Assembly: GCA_012086945.1 (NCBI GenBank)
Contig: GCA_012086945.1_3922.1
Direction: 5' to 3' (one strand)
Length of the DNA: 24,122 nucleotides
Source: a phage
Below, one piece after another: positions 1 to 22,553 of the stretch (its first letter is position 1; each line of letters begins with the position of its first letter). The notes beneath the pieces are model-generated. The model searched no databases, had not been told where the DNA came from, and was given only the letters and a program-made list of their open reading frames with translations. The translations under genes were made by a program, and so were the position numbers.

Positions 1-146
1 AGCTCTAAGTCATTTTTATCTGGTTTATGAAAACAGTTTGCTCCGCAGTGGCAACGAAATGGCTTTCCACCAACTGTAAGGATGAAGGATTGAACCTTTC
101 CATCAGGAGTTCGTACAGCATTTTTATGTTTATCTTCTTTGTTCAT
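1..146 (-). CDS. small Cys4 zinc-ribbon protein, 3' end truncated by window edge; paralogue of 471..674
   Basis: Minus-strand ATG at 146..144; translation MNKEDKHKNAVRTPDGKVQSFILTVGGKPFRCHCGANCFHKPDKNDLE... aligns with the 471..674 product (shared FRC-x-CG-x-NCFHKPD). Absent from the ORF track because it is short and truncated. Confidence 0.45.
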   Translation of the reverse strand, partial: MNKEDKHKNAVRTPDGKVQSFILTVGGKPFRCHCGANCFHKPDKNDLE

Positions 147-219
147 TTTATCTCTTGCCTCACAAGCTATGCAACCTTTTGAGTAGAAGTAGTGCCAAGC
201 ACAACCATCTAAGCTCTCT

Positions 220-474
220 TTAGTGATTAATTGAATTTACTAATTCCATGTGTTTTTCGTAGAAACATAAACATTTTTTATCTTGCTCATTTATGTAGCT
301 CTCATAAAATTCTGGTGATTCTGGTCTTTCACCAAATGAAATAACCTTTAGGTAGTACTTCCCATATGTGGAGCTATCTAACCAAGAGTCAAATAGTAAT
401 TTCTTAGTATTAGTCTTTGGAGAGATTACCAAACTTTTCTCATACAATTCCTTCATTTCTTGAGTTATCTTCAT
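220..474 (-). CDS. hypothetical protein (84 aa)
   Basis: Track ORF; stop overlaps the upstream gene start (ATGA), tight packing with neighbours; no recognisable motif. Confidence 0.45.
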   Translation of the reverse strand: MKITQEMKELYEKSLVISPKTNTKKLLFDSWLDSSTYGKYYLKVISFGERPESPEFYESYINEQDKKCLCFYEKHMELVNSINH

Positions 475-674
475 TGCATATCCTTAATCTTACCTAATAA
501 CCTTACCCCACAGTTATTACACTCGTATATGTCTAACTTTGTGTTATCAGGTTTGTGAAAACAGTTTGACCCACAACGACACCGGAATAGTTTACCATCA
601 ACACGAAGAATAAACGTCTCAAGCTCACCCTCTTCTGTAAGAACTGCGTTCTTCAATTTATCTCCTACAGTCAT
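471..674 (-). CDS. small Cys4 zinc-ribbon protein (67 aa)
   Basis: CRCGSNCFHK ... YECNNCGV gives a C-x-C ... C-x2-C arrangement; paralogous to the partial ORF at 1..146. Confidence 0.5.
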   Translation of the reverse strand: MTVGDKLKNAVLTEEGELETFILRVDGKLFRCRCGSNCFHKPDNTKLDIYECNNCGVRLLGKIKDMQ

Positions 675-877
675 TTTCTTTTACCACCAATCTCTACGTC
701 GATAACTTGAACATCACCAGCAACATCAAACTTATGAATGATACTTTCCACAGTGTAAGTCCAACCATCGATTCTAACCAACTCACCTTCCCGTGGGACG
801 ATTGGGTTACGTTGAGCTACCGTTGTAGTGGAGTGAACAACATCATAACAGTAGATATAGTTTACTAGGACTTCCAT
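671..877 (-). CDS. hypothetical protein (about 68 aa; track ORF 671..976 shortened to an internal ATG)
   Basis: ATG at 877 is preceded by GAGGT (TTGAGTGAGGTTTTCACG-ATG) and begins just after the stop of the 888..1145 gene; the longer track ORF would overlap that gene by about 90 nt. Confidence 0.4.
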   Translation of the reverse strand: MEVLVNYIYCYDVVHSTTTVAQRNPIVPREGELVRIDGWTYTVESIIHKFDVAGDVQVIDVEIGGKRK

Positions 878-1145: not shown

Positions 1146-1281
1146 GATAGTCTACCTCTCTGTATGTTTTTAAATAGTGAGTGATGAGTTCTGGTAATTC
1201 ACTACGTTTAACGTTTGAACGAAGAAGCGTCCAGTCAAAACCTTTACCAACCCTTCCCCAGAGACTGTACATTTTCTTCAT
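1135..1281 (-). CDS. possible small ORF (about 48 aa, MKKMYSLWGRVGKGFDWTLLRSNVKRSELPELITHYLKTYREVDYREQ)
   Basis: Fills the gap between neighbours; its ATG overlaps the stop of the 1278..1511 gene as ATGA. Below the ORF-track length cut-off; hand translated. Confidence 0.25.
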   Translation of the reverse strand: MKKMYSLWGRVGKGFDWTLLRSNVKRSELPELITHYLKTYREVDYREQ

Positions 1282-1511
1282 AGCAACTCCAGAATATCAA
1301 TACGTTCACCTTTAAGTACTCCAGTACGGTCTTTTGCAATCTTACCGTCAACGATAAGGATGTGTGTAGACCTTAAAGCGTCGTTGTTAAAGGTTTTTAC
1401 GAACTTGCTAGGCATGACTACAATGGACATCTCCTGAATTAACTCTGGAGTGTAGCAGTTATCATGAAGTTGCTGAATAACGTCTGCAAGTGTCATTTTT
1501 GATGTCTCCAA
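1278..1511 (-). CDS. hypothetical protein (77 aa)
   Basis: Track ORF, co-oriented and tightly packed with neighbours; no recognised motif. Confidence 0.45.
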   Translation of the reverse strand: METSKMTLADVIQQLHDNCYTPELIQEMSIVVMPSKFVKTFNNDALRSTHILIVDGKIAKDRTGVLKGERIDILELL

Positions 1512-1702
1512 TATTCAATATCTACAAGTTCTTGTGCAATGCTTTTCAGATTACCTTTCAAGAAAACCTTCTCAGAACCTGAAAGAGATGAATTGTCAAT
1601 TAACCTGTTCATTCTCTCAAACAACTTCTGCTTACGATTTTTGATAGTTTCCTTTGAAGCACCTTTCATCATTGCTGCATGGGTTCTTCCACGGTGGCTC
1701 AT
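1493..1702 (-). CDS. hypothetical protein (69 aa)
   Basis: Strong Shine-Dalgarno AGGAGGG a few nt upstream of the ATG at 1702; immediately downstream of the polymerase gene. Confidence 0.5.
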   Translation of the reverse strand: MSHRGRTHAAMMKGASKETIKNRKQKLFERMNRLIDNSSLSGSEKVFLKGNLKSIAQELVDIEYWRHQK

Positions 1703-1730
1703 AAGCCCTCCTATATAAGATATTGTATAA

Positions 1731-1750
1731 GGTACTCTTCCATGAGTACC
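1731..1750 (-). other. perfect 7-bp stem / 6-nt loop hairpin (GGTACTC-TTCCAT-GAGTACC) between polymerase gene and next gene, no clear T-tract
   Basis: Inverted repeat read directly from sequence. Confidence 0.35.
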
Positions 1751-1763
1751 TTGTCAATACTAA

Positions 1764-4463
1764 TTAGTGCACTTCAAGCCAGCTTTTACCAACCTTACCA
1801 GTACCTGTTACAAGTGTTTCTTTCTTAAGACCTAAATTCTTAGAAGCTTGTCCATAATACCAGTCAGTAACTGCTTTCACTTCTGCCGTCATACTTTCTG
1901 GACATTCCCAGCTTGTTTCATCGTGATATGCGCAGAGCAAACGAGCACCAATAGCTGGTTTACGACCATTTAACTTCATCAAACCTTCGTCAATCATACG
2001 ACGACAAGCAAGGTTAATTGCCTCATTTTGAATCTGAGCCTCTGAACCCATCAAAAGATAGTTCAACAGTTTGTGTGGAGATTTACACCACAACCAAGCT
2101 CCAGCAACCTTTACAAATCCCCCTTTAGAGATTGCAGCGGTCTTACCAAAAACCTCTTCAAGTGCCTTTTTAGTCGCTTTGTAGTCAGCTTCCAAGTCAT
2201 CTAGCAACTTCTTAATTTTAGGCAAACGAATAAAGTAAGTCTGTTTAGTCAGTGCACCTTCCTGAGTAGTTGCAGCTTTAATTGTCTTAGCAAACTTCTC
2301 ATCACCTGCACCGAACAGCAGTGCATAGATACCATTCTTAGCTTTTTTACGACCCTTACTAATCTCATGGAGAAGATTCTCATCCTGAGTGGCTCGACAA
2401 GTCAAGATATCCTGCTCATCATTCAAGCTAAAGTAAATACTGTTCAGTGTGTGTGCATCAGTCCCTGAATAGACAACGTACAGGTCATTCTCAGAGTCAT
2501 AGCGGAGGTACTTATCAATCTCTGGGTTGAGGTACTCATCAAAGTGTTTGCAGTAATAGCGTCCATCTTCTTGACGAATAAACTCAATCTCTTCTTTACC
2601 TTGCGTTACCGCTTTGGTGAAGTCTTTGTCACCCATAAAGTTACAAAGAAGAACTAGCTGGGCTGAGTTCATGTCTACAGAGACAACGTTAGTACCTTCT
2701 TCACAAATCCATACTGCCCTCATTGGTTCCCCATAGACAGCAGCACCAGACGGTACGTTTACAATACCATATTGTGTCATACGTCCAGTTGAAGTACCAA
2801 ATACCATTGCACCAGCACTAAGGCGACCATCTGGACGAATCTGGTTTAGCCAACCTTTTTCATCATCCTTTGAGTTCTCAATGGTTCTGCGTCGGTGCAT
2901 CAAAGTATAGTATTTAGCAATCTTCTGTCCAAGCTCACCTTCAATCGTATCATAAGAAGATTCAGTAAGTTTTGGTGAAGTACGGATTAAGCAAGGTTCA
3001 AGCAAATCCGTGTACTTCTTCACAGACCAGTTATGTTCGATGTACTGGACACCTTCGTGTTCAACATAACTCAACCCACACCGTTCAACCATCTCCTGCC
3101 ACTTAGGATGCTTTGTAATCATCTTTTTGTTGTCTTTGAAACGACAAACTTTGACAGGGCGACCGTCTGAATCTTTCTTGTAGTTCCAGTCATCTGGAAT
3201 CCAACCAACTGATTTCAAGTAGTCTTTAACAACTGCTACCTGAGTCATACGAGAAACTTCAAACTCAATTGGTGTATATGGTGCATCAATCAATCCTGTG
3301 TAGCGACTTGACTCAAGCTCAAAGTGGTTAACAACATGACTGTTATAGTACTTCACAGTTTTAACTGTTTTTACTGGCTTCCAGTCTTTGCATTTCTTAC
3401 CAATCTTTGCATTCAACTCATTGCAAATTGCACGAGCATCCTTCATTGCTACAAAACCCTCCTTGTACTCTTCACCAGTTACAGAGTTGGTTGGTGTATA
3501 GCAATTTCTCTTTTCAATGTTAAAAATCTTTGTAGTTGGCTTACCAAATGGCTTGATTTCATATGTCTGCATCTCACCGTTACGTACCTGCTGACGATAC
3601 TTCGTCTTAGGGTACTTGGTAATTCTCTTCAGTCCATCTGCGTGACCAAATGCTTCAACATACTCATTCCAAGCTTTTGCAAACTCTTCTCCAGTGACTT
3701 TACCTTTGGTCTTAATAGTTGGAGGAAGATGTGGTTCAACTTCTGAAGCAAGCTCATTAGTCAACTTGTCAAGTTCCTTTACATGGAACTCCATAAGCTC
3801 TTTATCAGCTTTCCAACCATTGATAGCTTGTTGACTCATCCAGAAAGATGTTTCTTTAGCTCGCATATAGGTTTCATAAGTGTCTATGCCACACTTCTTT
3901 AGCTTGAGATACTCATTATCCAGTGCGCGTTTAGTTTTGGCGTTAATACGGATATCTTCCACAACACGAGTGAAGATTTCTGCATTCCACACACCCCAAT
4001 GTTCAATCTCTGGTTTACGGACACCAACACGAGCACCCCATGCAGCCAAGCCATGAGCACCTTTATAGCCTTTTGGAGTTGGTCTATCCATCCACTGAAC
4101 ACGAGACTGGATAAGAGAATCCTGAAAGAAATTACTCCACGGCTTACACTTTGGATTATCAAAGTTCCATAAATCAGGTGCAATGTGATTGAAAACCCAC
4201 CAGTCATAACCCAGACCATTATGGATGCAAAGTCGTTTTGCCTTTAACGCAAACTCAACACCTTCACGTAAACCACCCTTAATGTACTTAGTGTACTTGT
4301 GACCGAGGATAGGCTCATCTGTAAAGACCCATACAGGTGGCTCTTCATCGTCAGATTTATAATCTGCGAAAGCCATTACGTGAACTTTAGTGAACTCAAG
4401 GAGTAAACCATCAGTTTCTGTATCACCAACTAAATGTAAGTTTTTAAAATCTACGTTTTCCAT
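1764..4463 (-). CDS. DNA polymerase, family A (T7 gp5-like) with N-terminal 3'-5' exonuclease domain
   Basis: Exo I motif VGDTETDG; motif A VVSVDMNSAQLVLL; motif B RKKAKNGIYALLFGAGDEKFA; motif C AYHDE; recalled similarity to T7 gp5 (e.g. YTPIEFEV vs YTPVEHVV). Start set at ATG 4463 (MENVDF...), preceded by AGAGGGAG; the track start at 4493 lacks an SD. Confidence 0.9.
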   Translation of the reverse strand: MENVDFKNLHLVGDTETDGLLLEFTKVHVMAFADYKSDDEEPPVWVFTDEPILGHKYTKYIKGGLREGVEFALKAKRLCIHNGLGYDWWVFNHIAPDLWNFDNPKCKPWSNFFQDSLIQSRVQWMDRPTPKGYKGAHGLAAWGARVGVRKPEIEHWGVWNAEIFTRVVEDIRINAKTKRALDNEYLKLKKCGIDTYETYMRAKETSFWMSQQAINGWKADKELMEFHVKELDKLTNELASEVEPHLPPTIKTKGKVTGEEFAKAWNEYVEAFGHADGLKRITKYPKTKYRQQVRNGEMQTYEIKPFGKPTTKIFNIEKRNCYTPTNSVTGEEYKEGFVAMKDARAICNELNAKIGKKCKDWKPVKTVKTVKYYNSHVVNHFELESSRYTGLIDAPYTPIEFEVSRMTQVAVVKDYLKSVGWIPDDWNYKKDSDGRPVKVCRFKDNKKMITKHPKWQEMVERCGLSYVEHEGVQYIEHNWSVKKYTDLLEPCLIRTSPKLTESSYDTIEGELGQKIAKYYTLMHRRRTIENSKDDEKGWLNQIRPDGRLSAGAMVFGTSTGRMTQYGIVNVPSGAAVYGEPMRAVWICEEGTNVVSVDMNSAQLVLLCNFMGDKDFTKAVTQGKEEIEFIRQEDGRYYCKHFDEYLNPEIDKYLRYDSENDLYVVYSGTDAHTLNSIYFSLNDEQDILTCRATQDENLLHEISKGRKKAKNGIYALLFGAGDEKFAKTIKAATTQEGALTKQTYFIRLPKIKKLLDDLEADYKATKKALEEVFGKTAAISKGGFVKVAGAWLWCKSPHKLLNYLLMGSEAQIQNEAINLACRRMIDEGLMKLNGRKPAIGARLLCAYHDETSWECPESMTAEVKAVTDWYYGQASKNLGLKKETLVTGTGKVGKSWLEVH

Positions 4464-4493: not shown

Positions 4494-4719
4494 ACATTAC
4501 TGCAAAAAATTATAAAAAGCAAGTTGACAATGTACTTGACAAGGTGTTAATCTTTGCGAAGTGGGTTTTACTTAAAAGGTTACTTAACAGTTTAACTATA
4601 CAGATACTTTAAAACTCTTAAAAGATTATTTAATAGCTTTTAAAAAGCTTTAAAGTATAACGTATAGAATACGTTAAGATAAAAGATTAAAACTTAATAG
4701 TTACTTAAAAGAGGCTTAC
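4494..4719. promoter_or_regulatory. AT-rich divergent intergenic control region
   Basis: Lies between the minus-strand polymerase and the plus-strand gene array. Contains direct repeats TTGACAA (4524..4530, 4536..4542), a minus-strand TATAAT (4509..4514), and an inverted repeat TAACGTAT-aga-ATACGTTA (4658..4676). Confidence 0.45.
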
Positions 4720-17640: not shown

Positions 17641-17882
17641 TGACTTATGTAATTTACTCCAAAACTGGATGCCCTCAGTGTGAGACCGCAAAGAATTTTG
17701 CAAAAGCTCGTGGTATTGACCATGTTGTGAGAATGTTAGGGCATGACTATGAGCTATCAGACCTGATGGATATTGCACAGATGCCAGTTCGTCAGATGCC
17801 ATTCATCATGAAAACTGATGGACAAAACCTAAAACCTGTTGGAACGCTACAGAATTTTATGGCAGAGGTGAATAATGCTTAA
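17640..17882 (+). CDS. glutaredoxin / NrdH-like small redoxin
   Basis: 80 aa, CPQC active site near the N-terminus (SKTGCPQCETAK), adjacent to nrdAB; start overlaps the nrdB stop (TAATG). Confidence 0.7.
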   Translation: MTYVIYSKTGCPQCETAKNFAKARGIDHVVRMLGHDYELSDLMDIAQMPVRQMPFIMKTDGQNLKPVGTLQNFMAEVNNA

Positions 17883-18081
17883 ACGACTTTGGGAAGGTTT
17901 GGTTGTTGATGCACCAGCCATTGTGATTGGTATGCTTGTTGTTAACCTATTTACTGATTTTGAACAAGGTTCATTGTTTGGGGCCATGTTACTATGGGTT
18001 ATCTTTGAAATATTAGAGATACAGCTAGGCATCACTGAAAAACTGAGAAAACTCGTTTCTAAGTTTTCTAAAAAGATTTAA
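17875..18081 (+). CDS. possible small membrane protein (68 aa)
   Basis: Two hydrophobic stretches (AIVIGMLVVNLF, GAMLLWVIFEIL); overlaps the glutaredoxin stop; followed by a terminator. Confidence 0.35.
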   Translation: MLKRLWEGLVVDAPAIVIGMLVVNLFTDFEQGSLFGAMLLWVIFEILEIQLGITEKLRKLVSKFSKKI

Positions 18082-18086
18082 AATGA

Positions 18087-18110
18087 AAGGGTCTCTTCGG
18101 AGACCTTTTT
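18087..18110 (+). terminator. rho-independent terminator with UUCG tetraloop
   Basis: GGTCTC-TTCG-GAGACC stem-loop followed by TTTTT. Confidence 0.7.
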
Positions 18111-18129
18111 AGCATGTAAAGGGGCAATA

Positions 18130-20274
18130 ATGAACAAAGTACAGATTATTAAAAAGAATGGCTCACTTGAAGAACCTGATATCAAAAAAGTTTTAGCGGC
18201 AGTAACAAAGTCAGCTAACAGGGTTGGATATAAAGAACTGCCACCAGATGTTACCCAAGCTCTTGAGTCAGCATTCATGAGGATTTTGGTAAAGTCCACT
18301 AAGCAGAATAATTTGCTTATCTCGGTAAATGATATTCACAGTATTGTTGAGGGTGCTTTGGCAGAAGTCAATCACGAGATTTATGAGTCTTACTCAACAT
18401 ATAGAAATTACCGTAAAGAGGTTGCTCAAAATTGGGATGAACTCTACCAGAAGACCAAAGATACACTCTTCTTAGGAGACCGAGAAAACGCTAATTTTGA
18501 CAGCAGTTTAATTTCTACAAAAGGCTCAATTATTCGTGGTTACCTGACTAAAGAAATCTTTAAACAGTATCATCTAACACCAGAGGAACTTGAAGCCATT
18601 GAGAAAGGCTTTATCTATATCCACGATTTGAGAGACCTGATTTTTGGTGGTATTAACTGTTGCCTGTTTGACATTGGTAAAGTACTAAAAGGTGGCTTTG
18701 AAATGTCCGGCATTGAGTACTGTGAACCTAAATCTGTACTGTCAGCGTTGCAGGTTATTGGTGACGTAGTACTTTCAGCAACTGCACAGCAATTTGGTGG
18801 TTTTACTTTAGCAGAGATTGATAAGGTACTTGTACCGTATGCTAAGAAGTCTCTATGCTATCATGCTGAGAAAGCATCATCTTATGGTATTCCTAAAGAG
18901 CATTACCACAATTATGTAATGGAGCAGTTACAAATTGAACTGACTCAGGGTTTTCAGTCACTTGAGATGAAACTAAATACCGTACCTTGTAGCCGTGGTG
19001 ATTTTGCATTCACAACTTTAACATTTGGTTTACTTGACTCAGATATGTCTAATGAGGATAATCGACTCCAATACATGATTGCAAGTACTCTCCTAGATGT
19101 TCGTATGAATGGACAAGGCAAGAGCAAAAAACCTGTTGTATTCCCTAAACTGGTTTATATTTATGACCAGAAGAGACATGATGAAAATATCTGTCAAGGT
19201 CACCTGTACAGTAAAGCCATCGAGTGTTGCTCTAAAGCAATGTACCCAGATTTCTTAAGTGTGTCTGGTCATGGTGCTGTAGTAGAGGCTTTTGAGCGTT
19301 CTGGTAAGGTAATTTCACCGATGGGTTGCAGAGCCTTTTTATCTCCATATCTTAATGAGGGTGGAGAAGAGTTCTACGTTGGTCGTGCTAACATTGGTGC
19401 TGTATCTTTGAACTTACCAATGATTTACCAGTATTCTAAAGAGAATGGTTTAGATTTCTGGAAAGAGCTTGATAAGCACCTAGAGATGATTCGCAACTTC
19501 CACAAGAAACGCTACGAAATGATTGCTAATATGCCAGCAAGTTCTAACCCTCTTGCATTCACACAAGGTGGTCTGTACAAAGGAACTAAGAAACCTACTG
19601 ACAAGGTTGGTTGGGATATTGTGAAGTCCTTCACAGCTTCTTTTGGTGTTACTGCGCTTGATGAGTTGTCTGTTCTTGCTGAAGGTAAACGACTTCATGA
19701 AGTTGGAAGCTATAGTTTTGCATATGATGTTCTGGCATACATCAACATGAAAATCGAAGAGTTTAAAAATGAAGATGGCTTCTTATATGCCGTCTATGGT
19801 ACTCCAGCAGAATCACTATGTGGGACTCAGCTAAAACAGTTCAGAGATATGTTTGGCGTTATCAAAGGTGTTTCTGACAAGGAATACTTTACAAACAGTT
19901 TCCATATGAATGTTGCAGCAGACATCTCACCATTTGAGAAGCAGGACTTAGAAGAACCATTCTTCCATATCTGTAGAGGCGGTAGAATCCAGTATGTAAG
20001 AGTAGCTAACCCAGAAAACTTATCAGCACTTAAAAGTTGTATTACAAGAGGGATGTTGAAAGGTTTCTATCAGGGACTTAACTTTGACTTAGCAATCTGT
20101 GAGCATTGTGGTAACAGACCAAAATCAGATGTTGAAGAGTGTGAAGTTTGTCACTCACATGATATCTCTGTGATTAACAGGGTGTGTGGGTATCTTGGAT
20201 GGACTAAGATTAAAGGTGAATCCCGAATGAACGATGCAAAAATCGCTGAGATTCGTGACAGAGTTTCTATGTAA
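18130..20274 (+). CDS. nrdD: anaerobic ribonucleoside-triphosphate reductase (class III)
   Basis: C-terminal zinc ribbon CEHCGN...CEVCHSHD and glycyl-radical motif RVCGYLG; 714 aa. Confidence 0.9.
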   Translation: MNKVQIIKKNGSLEEPDIKKVLAAVTKSANRVGYKELPPDVTQALESAFMRILVKSTKQNNLLISVNDIHSIVEGALAEVNHEIYESYSTYRNYRKEVAQNWDELYQKTKDTLFLGDRENANFDSSLISTKGSIIRGYLTKEIFKQYHLTPEELEAIEKGFIYIHDLRDLIFGGINCCLFDIGKVLKGGFEMSGIEYCEPKSVLSALQVIGDVVLSATAQQFGGFTLAEIDKVLVPYAKKSLCYHAEKASSYGIPKEHYHNYVMEQLQIELTQGFQSLEMKLNTVPCSRGDFAFTTLTFGLLDSDMSNEDNRLQYMIASTLLDVRMNGQGKSKKPVVFPKLVYIYDQKRHDENICQGHLYSKAIECCSKAMYPDFLSVSGHGAVVEAFERSGKVISPMGCRAFLSPYLNEGGEEFYVGRANIGAVSLNLPMIYQYSKENGLDFWKELDKHLEMIRNFHKKRYEMIANMPASSNPLAFTQGGLYKGTKKPTDKVGWDIVKSFTASFGVTALDELSVLAEGKRLHEVGSYSFAYDVLAYINMKIEEFKNEDGFLYAVYGTPAESLCGTQLKQFRDMFGVIKGVSDKEYFTNSFHMNVAADISPFEKQDLEEPFFHICRGGRIQYVRVANPENLSALKSCITRGMLKGFYQGLNFDLAICEHCGNRPKSDVEECEVCHSHDISVINRVCGYLGWTKIKGESRMNDAKIAEIRDRVSM

Positions 20275-20284
20275 AACTTGACAT

Positions 20285-20322
20285 GGTGGTGTGAGTCTTG
20301 ATAGGCTTACATCACCTTTTTT
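20285..20322 (+). terminator. rho-independent terminator candidate after nrdD
   Basis: GGTGGTGTGAG ... CTTACATCACC stem (with G-U pairs) followed by TTTTTT. Confidence 0.5.
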
Positions 20323-20336
20323 ATTGGATGTTAGAT

Positions 20337-20453
20337 ATGGCAGAGAGTATTATTGGGTTGTTCATAGGTTCTGTCTTACTAGGGTTCTTTTTAGGACTCT
20401 CTTATTGTGAATTAAGAGGCAAGTTAAAATGTTTAAAATATCAAAAGCGTTGA
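20337..20453 (+). CDS. possible small hydrophobic peptide (38 aa, MAESIIGLFIGSVLLGFFLGLSYCELRGKLKCLKYQKR)
   Basis: Hand translated; one predicted transmembrane helix; weak SD. Confidence 0.25.
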   Translation: MAESIIGLFIGSVLLGFFLGLSYCELRGKLKCLKYQKR

Positions 20454-20629
20454 TATACATTCTCCACATTCTAATCTTCTTCTTTGGGGTTAGTGTTATG
20501 GTATGGGGTTTTTCAGACCCACAATGGAGTTTCGCATATCAGGGTCAGATGGATTTATGGTCATGCTTCAAACCATTTTTAGGGTTAGTCATAGCATTCA
20601 GTGCATTGCCAACTAAGGTGAAATTATGA
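20429..20629 (+). CDS. small membrane protein (66 aa)
   Basis: Two hydrophobic segments (ALIYILHILIFFFGVSVMVWGF, FLGLVIAFSAL); stop overlaps the next start. Confidence 0.4.
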   Translation: MFKISKALIYILHILIFFFGVSVMVWGFSDPQWSFAYQGQMDLWSCFKPFLGLVIAFSALPTKVKL

Positions 20630-21021
20630 TTAAGTTGAACAAAAAACAGTTAGAGTGGATTAAAGATTATGCCTCAGAGTGTGGCTCTTGCGAAAAGAAT
20701 CACGTAAGATATTCAACATTCCATACGACCTTCACATTGTACATCAGCGACAACGTTCTAAGTGATTCCGTAGAAGATGGTGTAGCGTTACCTAATGAAT
20801 TGCTTGACAAATTAGCTGTAGTCTCTGGAACTTGGTCTGAAGAAGACGGTCATGAATTATCTAACGATGTTGTCTTCTACACTCTTGAAAATATTATGAA
20901 TCCAGAGTACATTATGCTAATGACTTGTGCACAAGATTGTGTGCCATTACAAAACTTCATTAAAGAACACTGCGAAGAATTTATTACTAAACAGGTTCCT
21001 TGTCAGGTGGTGTTTGAATGA
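20626..21021 (+). CDS. hypothetical Cys-containing protein (131 aa)
   Basis: Track ORF; start and stop both overlap neighbours (translational coupling); no recognised motif. Confidence 0.5.
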   Translation: MIKLNKKQLEWIKDYASECGSCEKNHVRYSTFHTTFTLYISDNVLSDSVEDGVALPNELLDKLAVVSGTWSEEDGHELSNDVVFYTLENIMNPEYIMLMTCAQDCVPLQNFIKEHCEEFITKQVPCQVVFE

Positions 21022-21317
21022 GTAAAACAATTCGAAGAAAAGGTTTAAAGAACGTTCATGGACTCTATGAGTGGAGAAATGAGGTACGTAACAGAGAAAA
21101 TGCTTCAGATGTCTACTTCCATTCTGATATGATGTCCAGAAAAGGTGGCTCTTACGACTTCACAAGCCAGCCTTGTAGAGAGATTAAGAAGGCCACTAAA
21201 CGTCTTACAAGAACACAAATAAGGCAGCTTTCTAAGACATCCTTCTTAGATGAAGATTTTGATATTGATAGCAAGTCTCCAAAGAAAGCCGCTAAGAACA
21301 CTTATATGTATTGGTGA
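21018..21317 (+). CDS. hypothetical basic protein (99 aa)
   Basis: Track ORF coupled to the upstream gene; directly precedes nrdG. Confidence 0.5.
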   Translation: MSKTIRRKGLKNVHGLYEWRNEVRNRENASDVYFHSDMMSRKGGSYDFTSQPCREIKKATKRLTRTQIRQLSKTSFLDEDFDIDSKSPKKAAKNTYMYW

Positions 21318-21326
21318 GGTAACTAG

Positions 21327-21812
21327 ATGAATTACATGGAGATTCGACCATTTGACACAGCTAATGGTGAAGGGGTTCGTGTAAGCCTCTTCGTAGCTGG
21401 TTGTAAGCATCACTGTGAAGGTTGCTTTAATAAGGAATCTTGGAAGTTTAATGCTGGTAAAGAGTTCACTTATGCAAACCTTTATGGCATCATTAAGTTA
21501 ATGAATGATAATGCCATCAGTGGGCTGTCAATACTTGGTGGAGAACCTCTGGATGATAGAAACATTCAAGAGGTTACCAACATATGCAAACGTATTAAAA
21601 CCGTTTACCCAGAAAAATCTATCTGGCTCTGGACAGGTTTTCAGTTACACGAAAAAATTCACCTAGATGTGATGAAATATATTGACGTGGTGATTGATGG
21701 TAAGTATGATTCATCTAAACCAACAGTTAAACCATATCGTGGTTCTGATAACCAAAACCTCTGGAGAAAAGAGTATGGGTGGCAAGGTGATTGTCAGTGG
21801 CGAGCCGAGTAA
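21327..21812 (+). CDS. nrdG: anaerobic RNR activating enzyme (radical SAM)
   Basis: GVRVSLFVAGCKHHCEGCFN carries the CxxxCxxC radical-SAM cluster motif typical of NrdG; GAGG upstream. Confidence 0.88.
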   Translation: MNYMEIRPFDTANGEGVRVSLFVAGCKHHCEGCFNKESWKFNAGKEFTYANLYGIIKLMNDNAISGLSILGGEPLDDRNIQEVTNICKRIKTVYPEKSIWLWTGFQLHEKIHLDVMKYIDVVIDGKYDSSKPTVKPYRGSDNQNLWRKEYGWQGDCQWRAE

Positions 21813-21935
21813 GTCTCGTCGTAAAGTAGGTTATCGGTAAAGGCCACTTTACAATGTTCTACAGAACAAACTTAACCGTTTGGTGTCACTGAAGAGCAAC
21901 TTAAAACCTTTTGTGAAAAGATTGAGAGATATGAA

Positions 21936-22193
21936 ATGGGACTCTGGAATAGTTTTAAATTAAAAGTAAAAGCAGCACTAGCTTCATTAGGTATGCTCAC
22001 TGGTGTTGATGTGACTCATCTTATGCAGAATTTTAAGATGGATGAGAGGCTGGCTAATGAGATTATGGAAAGTATCTATGTAGGCCGTGGCAAAGGTGGT
22101 AAGAAACAAGCCCACCGCCAATCCGGTGCAGCAGCTATTAAACGAGCAGCTAAGAAAGCTCGTAACCGTAAACGTAACAAGAAGGTTAAATAA
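21936..22193 (+). CDS. hypothetical protein with strongly basic C-terminal tail (85 aa)
   Basis: C-terminus GKKQAHRQSGAAAIKRAAKKARNRKRNKKVK. Confidence 0.45.
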   Translation: MGLWNSFKLKVKAALASLGMLTGVDVTHLMQNFKMDERLANEIMESIYVGRGKGGKKQAHRQSGAAAIKRAAKKARNRKRNKKVK

Positions 22194-22195
22194 CC

Positions 22196-22516
22196 ATGAG
22201 CAAAGTTTATAACACTCGTAAATTACAGATTTTCGTACTGTGCCAGTTTATGGCTAAAGAATACAACTTCTACTATTGTGGTACAGGTTTTATTAGTGAT
22301 GATGATGGCTCATACCTCCCATTCAAAGAGGCTGTAAAACTCTTCAATGAAGAGAAAAGCTCTAAGAAAGATATTGAAAAGGTTAAGCTAACCTACAGCA
22401 AGAGAGATAAGAAGATTATCTGCCTAGATAACTTTGTGAAAGTTACTGGAGAAGCAAAAGAGTTTATGGATGAGAGTGAGATTTCATTCACAAGCATCTT
22501 GAAAGTAGCTCAGTAA
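22196..22516 (+). CDS. hypothetical protein (106 aa)
   Basis: Starts 2 nt after the previous stop; followed by a terminator. Confidence 0.45.
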   Translation: MSKVYNTRKLQIFVLCQFMAKEYNFYYCGTGFISDDDGSYLPFKEAVKLFNEEKSSKKDIEKVKLTYSKRDKKIICLDNFVKVTGEAKEFMDESEISFTSILKVAQ

Positions 22517-22527
22517 ACAGATACTAT

Positions 22528-22553
22528 AAGGGGACTGTAAAGGTTCCCTTTTT
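22528..22553 (+). terminator. rho-independent terminator candidate
   Basis: AAGGGGA ... TTCCCTT stem followed by TTTTT. Confidence 0.5.

Follow-up and report, generated by a model that had tools for sequence, protein, structure and literature searches.

The spacer between nrdD and nrdG, the genes for the catalytic subunit of the class III (anaerobic) ribonucleotide reductase (RNR) and its activase, in Felix O1-like phages is probably a hypervariable accessory-gene locus rather than a part of the anaerobic RNR: its flanks are conserved, and the small ORFs between them vary from phage to phage, having been gained, lost and replaced independently. The sequence analysed here, a stretch of 24,122 nucleotides from GenBank assembly GCA_012086945.1 (hereafter, the window), represents a wV8-like Felixounavirus (98% identity) of the Felix O1-like subfamily Ounavirinae and carries the fullest version of the cassette, with two putative membrane proteins (ORF1 and ORF2), a predicted acidic alpha/beta protein (ORF3) and a basic, probably disordered protein (ORF4). 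The locus evolves through microhomology deletions, module replacement and insertion of homing endonucleases at the nrdD stop codon. Participation of ORF1–4 in radical generation or nucleotide reduction is not likely, and a role in host interaction seems more likely than one in dNTP chemistry. The case corrects the plausible but wrong inference that genes flanked by those for an enzyme and its activase necessarily assist the enzyme, and leaves the understanding of class III RNR unchanged.

Organization of the nrdD–nrdG spacer

The earlier note on this DNA had described a gap of approximately 1 kb with small genes between nrdD and nrdG, a terminator 3' of nrdD and coupling of ORF3 to ORF4, all of which are borne out: the two genes are 1052 bp apart, and the spacer accommodates a strong hairpin terminator and four overlapping or abutting ORFs on the same strand (Table 1). 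The accompanying premise, that nrdD and nrdG are usually adjacent, fails in phages: in T4, the homing endonuclease gene mobC lies between them (Table 1 of PMC2988022). The nrdD gene of the window is intron-less and 98% identical to that of wV8. ORF2 overlaps ORF1 by 25 nt, ATGA overlaps join ORF2 to ORF3 and ORF3 to ORF4, and the ORF4 stop codon lies 9 nt before the nrdG ATG, which is preceded by a Shine–Dalgarno sequence, GAGG, at 21316–21319. Because their start and stop codons overlap or lie close together all the way to nrdG, the small genes are probably carried on the nrdG transcript and read by the same ribosomes, and would be co-translated with nrdG.

Table 1. Features of the nrdD–nrdG region in the window.
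Feature	Coordinates	Strand	Evidence or remarks
nrdD, class III (anaerobic) ribonucleotide reductase catalytic subunit	18130..20274	+	Pfam NRDD 4.1e-114, ATP-cone 7e-12, Gly_radical
Candidate sigma-70 promoter, extended -10 type	20278..20307	+	TTGACA 20278-83, N15, TGn 20299-301, TAGGCT 20302-07; inside the terminator hairpin
Predicted intrinsic terminator	20285..20322	+	14-pair hairpin 20285-20316, then T6 20317-20322
TATTGG direct repeat, left copy bounding the cassette	20322..20327	+	Alignment with cassette-less SP2 SHa-2019 and Mushroom
ORF1, predicted 38-aa single-pass membrane peptide, basic C-tail (MAESIIGLFIGSVLLGFFLGLSYCELRGKLKCLKYQKR)	20337..20453	+	phrog_20082 'membrane protein', 6e-37
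ORF2, predicted 66-aa membrane protein, N-terminal TM helix and second, shorter hydrophobic stretch	20429..20629	+	phrog_11929 'membrane protein', 1e-46
ORF3, predicted 131-aa acidic (net -13) soluble alpha/beta protein	20626..21021	+	Locus resident conserved across Ounavirinae
ORF4, 99-aa basic (net +10) protein, predicted mostly disordered	21018..21317	+	Same PHROG (1774) as T4 gp55.5
TATTGG direct repeat, right copy	21309..21314	+	Within the last ORF4 codons
nrdG, radical-SAM activase of NrdD	21327..21812	+	Pfam Fer4_12 8e-44, Radical_SAM 3.6e-7

All four ORFs are real genes, because they are under purifying selection in frame (pN/pS 0.10–0.31 versus approximately 0.6–5.5 off frame, with nrdG and nrdD providing baselines of 0.062 and 0.065, respectively) and their reading frames, intact wherever checked, contain no stop codons in 13–24 related loci. 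For ORF3 and ORF4, the in-frame values are 0.28 and 0.10. The two small hydrophobic ORFs, ORF1 and ORF2, are very short, and one or both are omitted from the annotations of ASO1A, KhF3 and XTG1, as could be expected of chance frames in a long ORF3–nrdG mRNA leader, but that they are such frames is highly improbable: pN/pS is 0.13 in frame versus 0.62–2.8 off frame for ORF1 and 0.31 versus 0.87–0.90 for ORF2, neither stops nor frameshifts occur in the 22 and 24 loci, respectively, in which they are intact, the codon changes between the ORF1 alleles of the window and SUSP2 in the alignment are mostly synonymous (six versus two non-synonymous), and ORF1-type peptides are conserved in Suspvirus, with an unannotated 33-aa homologue in SUSP1. 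The same four genes, with 96%–100% protein identity, are labelled 'membrane protein' or 'hypothetical protein' in wV8 (gp126–gp129), and the published annotation of Felix O1 lists them as ORF118–120 (Felix01p220–222), with ORF4 lacking and only 59 bp between ORF120 and nrdG; the public records assign no function to these genes and pass over the variability of the locus.

Terminator and candidate promoter downstream of nrdD

The element that follows nrdD has the hallmarks of an intrinsic terminator. Its hairpin is predicted to fold with a dG of -23.9 kcal/mol (z = -5.2; 200 shuffled sequences all fold less stably), it ends in a U-run, and the pairing is preserved by a compensatory change (G-C to A-U) in L043/ESh21 and by a G-U to A-U change in Felix O1/VpaE1. 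A terminator is also annotated in the wV8, ASO1A and Michonne records. An Rfam search of positions 20150–21450 found no RNA family. The element, approximately 50 nt in length, is conserved in Felixounavirus, Mooglevirus and Suspvirus, always directly upstream of the next gene, whichever that is.

The terminator would overlap a TTGACA/extended -10 promoter. The candidate combines a perfect -35 hexamer, the TGn motif and 18-nt spacing with a weak -10 hexamer that matches the consensus at three of six positions (T1, A2 and T6), which is why a simple consensus promoter scan did not list it, the score falling below threshold; the window contains two instances of TTGACA-N14-16-TGnTAnnnT, versus 0.10 expected from shuffles. 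Promoter function is suggested by a consensus match, and transcripts initiated at this site would begin within the 3' arm of the hairpin, hence escaping termination. The terminator with its embedded promoter-like sequence represents a testable regulatory module.

Gain, loss and replacement of the small genes

The nrdD–nrdG region was found in 258–260 records, ORF3 in 232, ORF2 in 188, ORF1 in 148 and ORF4 in only 95. In Salmonella phage SP2 SHa-2019, a natural Felixounavirus, nrdD, the terminator and nrdG follow one another within 64 bp; the NrdD C-terminus and NrdG are intact (95%–96% identical), and no homologue of ORF1–4 was detected in the whole genome of 85.7 kb (tblastn E > 0.05), so the cassette appears dispensable and unlinked to RNR. 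The cassette is also missing from the nrdD–nrdG gap of Mushroom, VSe11 and FM4b. Each of the four ORFs is individually dispensable, although all are under purifying selection.

The cassette-less junction, in which TTTTTATTGG is joined directly to TGAGGTAACTAGATG, corresponds to deletion of the whole cassette between the TATTGG repeats, with retention of the ORF4 stop codon and the nrdG Shine–Dalgarno sequence. ORF4 has been deleted independently at least twice, leaving the in-frame remnant MSKTIRRKGLKNVYMYW before the stop codon in one case and MSKTIK before the stop codon in another, and remnants of its 5' and 3' ends persist in ORF4-less genomes. Given the survival of these remnants, and of the terminal ORF4 bases at the cassette-less junction, the complete cassette seems to be the ancestral state in felixounaviruses and to be undergoing loss by deletion. 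The view of the spacer as inserted cargo, raised in the earlier note, accordingly holds insofar as the locus is variable, modular and dispensable, but not with regard to the direction of change.

Replacement is apparent as well. In Alf5-type phages, a 111-aa membrane protein (phrog_8826) takes the place of ORF1, and the same protein is encoded in the nrdD–nrdG gap of Mooglevirus and Arno18. The latter phage is an extreme case, in which nrdD and nrdG are separated by approximately 4 kb with 11 small ORFs; one of these is an ORF4 homologue, whereas ORF1–3 are absent near this region. The locus resembles moron and other accessory insertion sites in that small genes of unrelated function are lodged between core genes together with a strong terminator and possibly a promoter of their own, and vary in presence; it differs in that the phage is virulent, the genes are chained translationally into a core gene, nrdG, rather than being autonomous, and the full state appears ancestral in Felixounavirus, with loss by deletion. 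The full cassette, two ORF4-deletion alleles and the state with no cassette form a natural deletion series that offers isogenic-like comparisons for the functions of the small genes and could guide genome minimization of Felix O1-like therapeutic or typing phages.

None of the four products resembles a component of a class III RNR, whether by a catalytic or cofactor signature or by obligate co-occurrence with nrdD and nrdG. Scans of ORF1–4 against Pfam, NCBIfam and PADLOC yielded nothing significant, the sole hit being a sub-threshold match of ORF4 to DUF5499, and no glycyl-radical RVxG[FWY], radical-SAM CxxxCxxC, flavodoxin or thioredoxin signatures were found. The suggestion that these ORFs could be accessory factors for anaerobic dNTP synthesis is therefore unsupported, given the lack of such signatures, the intact nrdD and nrdG of SP2 SHa-2019, the absence of ORF3 from approximately 28 of the approximately 260 records and the location of ORF4 homologues away from nrdDG in other phages.

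ORF1 and ORF2: small predicted membrane proteins

The proposal that the cassette encodes membrane-active proteins remains a prediction and finds support solely in ORF1 and ORF2, each of which has at least one strong hydrophobic helix (KD 2.16 and 2.55, respectively, with TM segments called from a simple hydropathy window) and belongs to a PHROG 'membrane protein' family. ORF1 of SUSP2 is 89% identical to that of the window at the amino acid level, with neighbouring genes at 40%–78%. ORF2 is found only in Felixounavirus; its first eight codons (MFKISKAL) are the same as the start of the ORF3 homologue of SUSP2. ORF1 could also start at position 20328 or, as annotated, at a TTG at 20298, but the resulting 51-aa version of the latter is unlikely, because this start sits within the terminator hairpin and the sequence is conserved even in front of a different gene. 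No similarity was found between T4 gp55.8 and ORF1, ORF2 or gp124.

According to two published reports (PMC3185647; PMC4837284), Felix O1-like genomes have no recognizable holin beside the lysin, and the size, TM content and charged C-termini of ORF1 and ORF2 are typical of small holins and antiholins, so that the two could be taken for the missing holin/antiholin or another lysis-timing pair. This assignment is very unlikely to be correct. Such a pair would be present in all lytic relatives and linked to lysis or late genes, but SP2, Mushroom, Mooglevirus and SUSP1, which are lytic, lack ORF2, Alf5-type phages lack ORF1, and both genes are located in a nucleotide-metabolism (nrd) operon, not among the late genes. 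The natural deletion variants make it likely already that lysis timing is normal without ORF1 and ORF2.

ORF3, a protein specific to Ounavirinae

Modelling confidently predicts a fold for ORF3 that appears to be lineage-specific, without a solved structural relative: comparison of fold and sequence gave no match to flavodoxin, thioredoxin, GrcA or any RNR-related structure, and word-indexed protein searches with ORF3, as with ORF4, returned only close Ounavirinae relatives. Apart from 232 records, ORF3 was detected in 28 metagenomic viral contigs, always confined to the nrdD–nrdG gap; one distant relative, P0105, is encoded on a contig of 3.4 kb that carries no nrd genes, and nothing in the phage collection matches P0105. 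Within the gap, what directly follows ORF3 is always nrdG or else ORF4 or its remnant, and ORF3 overlaps or abuts the nrdG start in three genera, with the ORF3 stop codon overlapping the nrdG start in Mooglevirus and Suspvirus. Among its residues, the polar H26, S30, T69 and W70 are invariant, and H115, C116 and E118 nearly so. ORF3 as a GrcA-like spare-part glycyl-radical protein was rejected, as the invariant 'SGTW' is not RVxG[FWY], lies in a strand rather than in a finger loop and is accompanied by no Gly_radical match; so was a redox or zinc protein based on CxxC, a motif of the window copy that is not conserved.

The position abutting nrdG, which is typical of functionally linked genes, argues against the accessory-locus interpretation, and the occurrence of the ORF4 family near nrd genes in T4, Serratia phage 4S and Arno18 means that some linkage to nrd exists. 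ORF3, possibly together with ORF4, might accordingly be a dedicated accessory factor or regulator of the phage class III RNR, which would account for its co-translation with NrdG. Possible tasks include delivering electrons to NrdG as an adaptor, shielding the oxygen-sensitive glycyl radical and modulating the stoichiometry of the activase. The restriction of ORF3 to the nrdD–nrdG gap, its stop–start overlaps with nrdG, the invariant polar residues, which could form a site, and the proximity of gp55.5 to nrdG and nrdH in T4 and of its relative in 4S are consistent with such a role. We nevertheless consider it unlikely. Intact, conserved nrdD and nrdG persist without ORF3 and ORF4 genome-wide in SP2 SHa-2019 and in the gap of Mushroom-type phages, and Arno18 has both genes but not ORF3. 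Furthermore, ORF3 diverges far faster than NrdG (40%–55% versus 78%–93% identity between genera), and the two divergences do not track each other; its CxxC is not conserved; and it shows neither a Pfam or NCBIfam match nor an RNR-related fold. Finally, the transcript of the Felix O1 homologue, ORF120, reached its maximum at 25 min, whereas nrdD and nrdG peaked at 60 min (RT-PCR; Table 3 of PMC3185647); a literature search on Felixounavirus transcriptomics found nothing specific beyond this.

An anaerobic role of the cassette may instead be conditional, because the cassette-less phages have been propagated aerobically in the laboratory, where nrdDG itself is not needed. Under certain conditions, ORF3 would then partner either the anaerobic RNR activase or a glycyl-radical system of the host; it could, for example, adjust or safeguard radical activation in the gut, or inhibit the activases of host PFL or NrdDG. 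Compatibly, the 50-nt element would serve as a portable landing pad for accessory genes, composed of terminator and promoter. We regard this proposal as improbable too, but if it were true, the cassette-less phages would have lost a function specific to anaerobiosis and would represent laboratory or ecological variants.

ORF4, a distant homologue of T4 gp55.5

ORF4, formerly an orphan, can now be assigned to the T4 gp55.5/DUF5499 family: profile comparison shows remote homology to T4 gp55.5 along the entire protein. The ORF4-family profile matches gp55.5 with an E-value of 1.2e-11 in hmmsearch and aligns to it in hhalign over 91 columns (97.3% probability, E 2.3e-11). The two proteins are of similar size (99 versus 97 aa) and share an N-terminal M-x-K-T-x-R-R-K motif, a central H-[SK]-D-M, an acidic D/E-D-F-D patch and an aromatic C-terminus, but are only approximately 28%–30% identical. 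Against the Pfam model of DUF5499 (PF17603), ORF4 scores 21.9 bits, below the gathering threshold of 27 bits (gp55.5 scores 217 bits), and eight of 12 members of the ORF4 family match the model, none better than E 1.7e-5. An exhaustive phmmer search with ORF4 recovered only nine representative clusters, sequence-profile searches of the PDB were empty, and a literature search on DUF5499 and gp55.5 found no mention of them. The AF2 model of ORF4 has a pLDDT of 53 and appears disordered. Homologues are encoded among small ORFs in Straboviridae and in PJNS034, in some cases at a distance from nrdDG.

The parallel with T4 extends to the setting. The T4 'hyperplastic' regions (55.1–55.8) contain small ORFs next to nrdG and nrdH and in the same direction, including the predicted membrane protein 55.8 and gp55.5; however, the gp55.5 homologue is upstream of nrdG in the window and gp55.5 itself is downstream of nrdH in T4, and no counterparts of ORF1–3 were found in the 13 kb of T4 examined. 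The most likely role of the cassette would be host interaction or takeover, as carried in the T4 regions. For ORF1 and ORF2, the site of action would be the inner membrane; ORF3 would serve as an inhibitor or as a factor that binds proteins, and the target of ORF4 would be either nucleic acid or a partner protein.

Homing endonucleases at the nrdD stop codon

NUMOD3/HNH-like endonuclease genes are inserted between the nrdD stop codon and the terminator element in four lineages (VpaE1, Mushroom, SUSP1 and L031), and introns and homing endonuclease genes (HEG) also occur inside nrdD. In the window, by contrast, a domain scan of ORF1–4 detected no HNH or GIY-YIG nuclease with a NUMOD module. The T4 arrangement, nrdD–mobC–nrdG, is similar in that DNA unrelated to RNR parts reductase from activase and the junction is an insertion site for homing endonucleases; it differs in that the gap in the window holds four small genes and no endonuclease.

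The content and patchiness of the cassette might be mainly a by-product of homing at the 3' end of nrdD, whereby double-strand-break repair with co-conversion copies, homogenizes or deletes the flanking small genes between co-infecting phages and the genes are in part hitch-hikers. T4 mobC and segH act in this manner at the same junction (PMC2988022), and the exact placement of the NUMOD3/HNH genes and the HEG and introns within nrdD are in keeping with it, as is the segment comprising the terminator and ORF1, which is approximately 90% identical at the nucleotide level between Felixounavirus and SUSP2, as expected from recent gene conversion, whereas the flanking proteins are only 40%–78% identical. 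We consider this explanation unlikely, since the cassette of the window contains no endonuclease gene, all four ORFs are kept for the sake of their products, as shown by purifying selection, and HEG presence is uncorrelated with cassette content, VpaE1 having an HEG and the full cassette and SP2 having neither. The endonucleases of all four lineages match NUMOD3 above the cut-off and a colicin/HNH DNase domain below threshold.

Gene layout and coding potential of the nrdD–nrdG region

Megablast with positions 18000-22000 retrieved 260 phage records, all from Felix O1-like myoviruses of the subfamily Ounavirinae, the best match being Escherichia typing phage 1 (98% identity; wV8, 97.9%). The region lies in an operon for nucleotide metabolism, ordered nrdA, nrdB, glutaredoxin, 68-aa membrane protein, nrdD, a cassette of four small ORFs and nrdG. 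The terminator and four ORFs that the earlier note had placed between nrdD and nrdG are borne out by domain content, hairpin energy (dG -23.9 kcal/mol, z -5.2) and ORF coordinates (Table). A 25-nt stretch is shared by ORF1 and ORF2, ATGA overlaps occur at both ORF2/ORF3 and ORF3/ORF4, and the nrdG ATG starts 9 nt past the ORF4 stop. The genes are already known, being carried by hundreds of public genomes and annotated as hypothetical; in wV8, they are gp126-129, two labelled 'membrane protein' and two 'hypothetical protein'.

Features of the window and of related loci (L-numbers), with pN/pS values; ORF1–ORF4 share one strand
Feature	Locus	Coordinates	Length	pN/pS in frame	pN/pS, other two frames	Remarks
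Promoter-like pattern	window	4524-4553				two overlapping TTGACA boxes
68-aa protein gene	window	17875-18081	68 aa			
Terminator	window	18090-18105				short hairpin
nrdD	window	18130-20274				identified by domain content
nrdD C-terminus	window			0.065		baseline
Terminator hairpin	window	20285-20316				14 pairs, T6 run; after nrdD stop
ORF1	window	20337-20453	38 aa	0.13	2.8, 0.62	
ORF2	window	20429-20629	66 aa	0.31	0.87, 0.90	
ORF3	window	20626-21021		0.28	0.98, 1.4	
ORF4	window	21018-21317	99 aa	0.10	5.5, 1.0	
nrdG Shine-Dalgarno	window	21316-21319				GAGG
nrdG	window	21327-21812		0.062		identified by domain content; baseline
106-aa protein gene	window	22196-22516	106 aa			
Terminator	window	22528-22550				9 pairs, T-run
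Group I intron in nrdD	L004 (SP2 SHa-2019)	1694-2075				RF00028
Intervening nrdD segment	L005 (Mushroom)	1245-2066				
Intervening nrdD segment	L006 (UAB_Phi87)	1-721				
ORF1-like peptide	L007 (phiSUSP1)	2210-2311	33 aa			
phrog_8826 member	L020	2466-2801				Alf5-type
phrog_8826 member	L031	2466-2801				Alf5-type
phrog_8826 member	L008	2819-3082				
phrog_8826 member	L012	1149-1406				
phrog_8826 member	L009	4773-5012				

All four cassette ORFs are genes under selection, and a non-coding reading is unlikely: among 13-24 felixounavirus loci from the annotated collection and IMG/VR, no internal stops were found in ORF1-4, and comparison of pN/pS with the nrdG and nrdD C-terminus baselines, computed on the same genomes, indicates that they are selected, with looser constraint on ORF2 and ORF3 than on the reductase. 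ORF1 has a single, strongly hydrophobic helix with a basic tail, and ORF2 an N-terminal transmembrane helix and a shorter hydrophobic stretch, in agreement with the earlier description of hydrophobic peptides; both belong to PHROGs labelled 'membrane protein', and a lysis role for these two is unlikely. The 68-aa protein (phrog_4532; wV8 gp124, Felix O1 ORF116), with two predicted transmembrane helices, lies between the glutaredoxin gene and nrdD, so that small membrane proteins occur on both sides of nrdD; the terminator after its gene is identical to Felix O1 't116'.

Variability of the gap

Synteny comparison revealed that the gap contents vary widely among related phages. Coverage of 20200-21400 in blastn forms a graded series across 258 records, and tblastn detected ORF3 in 232 records, ORF2 in 188, ORF1 in 148 and ORF4 in 95. 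In Salmonella phage SP2 SHa-2019, the nrdD stop, terminator and nrdG start all lie inside 64 bp, and no ORF1-4 homologues were found in its whole 85.7-kb genome (tblastn, best E 0.056), yet NrdG and the NrdD C-terminus are 96% and 95% identical to those of the window and both are intact, which weakens the suggestion that the cassette is an accessory of anaerobic dNTP synthesis. Mushroom carries a homing endonuclease gene, the terminator and nrdG, with no cassette, and VSe11 and FM4b resemble it, judged by coverage. The gap reads terminator, two small ORFs, ORF3 homologue and nrdG in Michonne; terminator, ORF1 homologue, ORF3 homologue and nrdG in SUSP2; and homing endonuclease gene, terminator, an unannotated 33-aa ORF1-like peptide, ORF3 homologue and nrdG in SUSP1. 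Over 20 residues, this peptide (MIKTFLLVTLVGSVLLGFLLGLLYNTLKGKKDD) shares 70% identity with ORF1, and it has a phrog_20082 match at 2e-4; its ORF follows the terminator element and precedes the ORF3 homologue. Arno18 has 11 small ORFs across ~4 kb, with an ORF4 homologue and no ORF3. In Alf5-type genomes, a 111-aa membrane protein (phrog_8826) stands in for ORF1; it has an N-terminal transmembrane helix followed by a ~55-aa two-cysteine C-terminal domain (motifs GNTT-LVPQ and EYLY-CDN), and its homologues also sit between nrdD and nrdG in Mooglevirus (Michonne gp014, ESh21) and Pectobacterium phage Arno18.

The cassette-less junction, TTTTTATTGG joined to TGAGGTAACTAGATG, arose by loss of the DNA between two TATTGG copies, one at 20322-27 and the other at 21309-14. 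Both the stop codon of ORF4 and the Shine-Dalgarno of nrdG survive at the junction, which marks the empty state as derived. The view of the cassette as inserted cargo agrees with its variability and dispensability but not with an empty state produced by deletion. ORF4 was deleted twice, with two different remnants: UAB_Phi87-type genomes, to which Felix O1 appears to belong by its 59-bp gap, retain 17 in-frame codons (MSKTIRRKGLKNVYMYW, then a stop), and a second group retains ATGAGTAAAACAATTAAATAA, read as MSKTIK and a stop. Since the SUSP2 ORF3 homologue and the window ORF2 both begin with MFKISKAL, ORF2 appears, from sequence comparison, to have been spliced into the 5' end of an ancestral ORF3.

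Homing endonuclease genes are inserted between the nrdD stop and the terminator element, and in all four gap endonucleases examined NUMOD3 scores above threshold and an HNH-type DNase domain below it. A group I intron interrupts nrdD in several relatives, including SP2 SHa-2019 (54.8 bits); the window nrdD is uninterrupted. The intervening segment in Mushroom and UAB_Phi87 also encodes an HNH homing endonuclease. Shuffling driven by such endonucleases probably contributes to the patchwork, but leaves the purifying selection on the cassette genes unexplained.

Foreign DNA between nrdD and nrdG is well known from T4. The gap fits a hypervariable accessory locus, akin to the T4 hyperplastic regions as variable small-gene loci, in which small genes with a probable role in host interaction would rely on coupling to a core gene to be expressed, and are gained, swapped and lost with no effect on core function. 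That ORF3 instead serves the activase NrdG is improbable, with a small probability left for anaerobic conditions: its position alone counts for this, whereas natural phages without ORF3 keep intact nrdDG, its divergence is rapid and uncorrelated, it contains no relevant motif or fold, and RT-PCR timing differs, with Felix O1 ORF120 (the ORF3 homologue) at its maximum at 25 min and nrdD (ORF117) and nrdG (ORF121) peaking at 60 min (PMC3185647 Table 3; ORF numbering checked). Modest novelty lies in the deletion series and junctions, a confidently predicted orphan fold of ORF3, the link of ORF4 to T4 gp55.5 and the conserved terminator element with its promoter-like sequence.

This Felixounavirus segment also occurs, at ~90-96% identity, in records attributed to Staphylococcus (GU169904 'Staphylococcus phage SA1'), Campylobacter (MG065664/MG065668 'Campylobacter phage A132/A126') and a methanogen (protein-search record P0087, 'Methanobrevibacter gottschalkii'), likely reflecting contamination or misattributed assemblies rather than true host range.

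Relationship of ORF4 to T4 gp55.5

ORF4 (net charge +10; predicted mostly disordered, pLDDT 53) scores 21.9 bits against Pfam DUF5499, below the 27-bit cut-off, the archetype T4 gp55.5 scoring 217 bits. The ORF4-family profile matches gp55.5 at 1.2e-11 (hhalign probability 97.3%), and both belong to phrog_1774. The T4 order is nrdD, mobC, nrdG, 55.8 (membrane), nrdH, 55.6, 55.5. In Serratia phage 4S, an ORF4 homologue is found in the interval from nrdH to gene 55; Yersinia phage JC221 has one in the 57A–nudE interval, and in phage PJNS034 one occurs close to the DNA polymerase gene. No mention of DUF5499 or gp55.5 was found in the literature searched.

A conserved terminator element

The element TTGACA-(A/T)GGTGGTGT(A/G)GGTCTTGATAGGCTTACATCACC-T5-7-ATTGG is almost invariant in Felixounavirus, Mooglevirus and Suspvirus, between which NrdD protein identity is just 75-79%, and its stem displays compensatory changes (G-C to A-U in L043 and ESh21; G-U to A-U in Felix O1 and VpaE1). 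In every case, it lies directly upstream of the next gene, whichever that is (nrdG itself in SP2 and Mushroom). The terminator-plus-ORF1 segment is ~90% identical in nucleotide sequence between the window and SUSP2, the flanking proteins being 40-78% identical, which is consistent with strong constraint or recent gene conversion, perhaps endonuclease-promoted.

Within the element lies an extended -10-like candidate promoter, TTGACA-N15-TGn-TAGGCT. The pattern TTGACA-N14-16-TGnTAnnnT has two matches across the window where 0.10 would be expected, and the only match besides this candidate may be a real promoter. A simple promoter scan did not list the candidate because its -10 hexamer matches at only 3/6 positions. 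If active, it would start transcripts within the 3' arm of the hairpin, allowing them to escape termination; how transcription gets past the many terminators of Felix O1 was explicitly left open (PMC3185647, section 2.5).

The 106-aa protein annotated as 'putative HNH endonuclease' in wV8 and Felix O1 falls instead into phrog_4462 (unknown function) and hits DUF7390 of Pfam at 2e-16; it yielded no HNH domain match. Its gene is followed by a second strong hairpin terminator, equivalent to Felix O1 't124', and the nrdG-containing unit therefore seems to begin with the element at 20278 and end at this second terminator.
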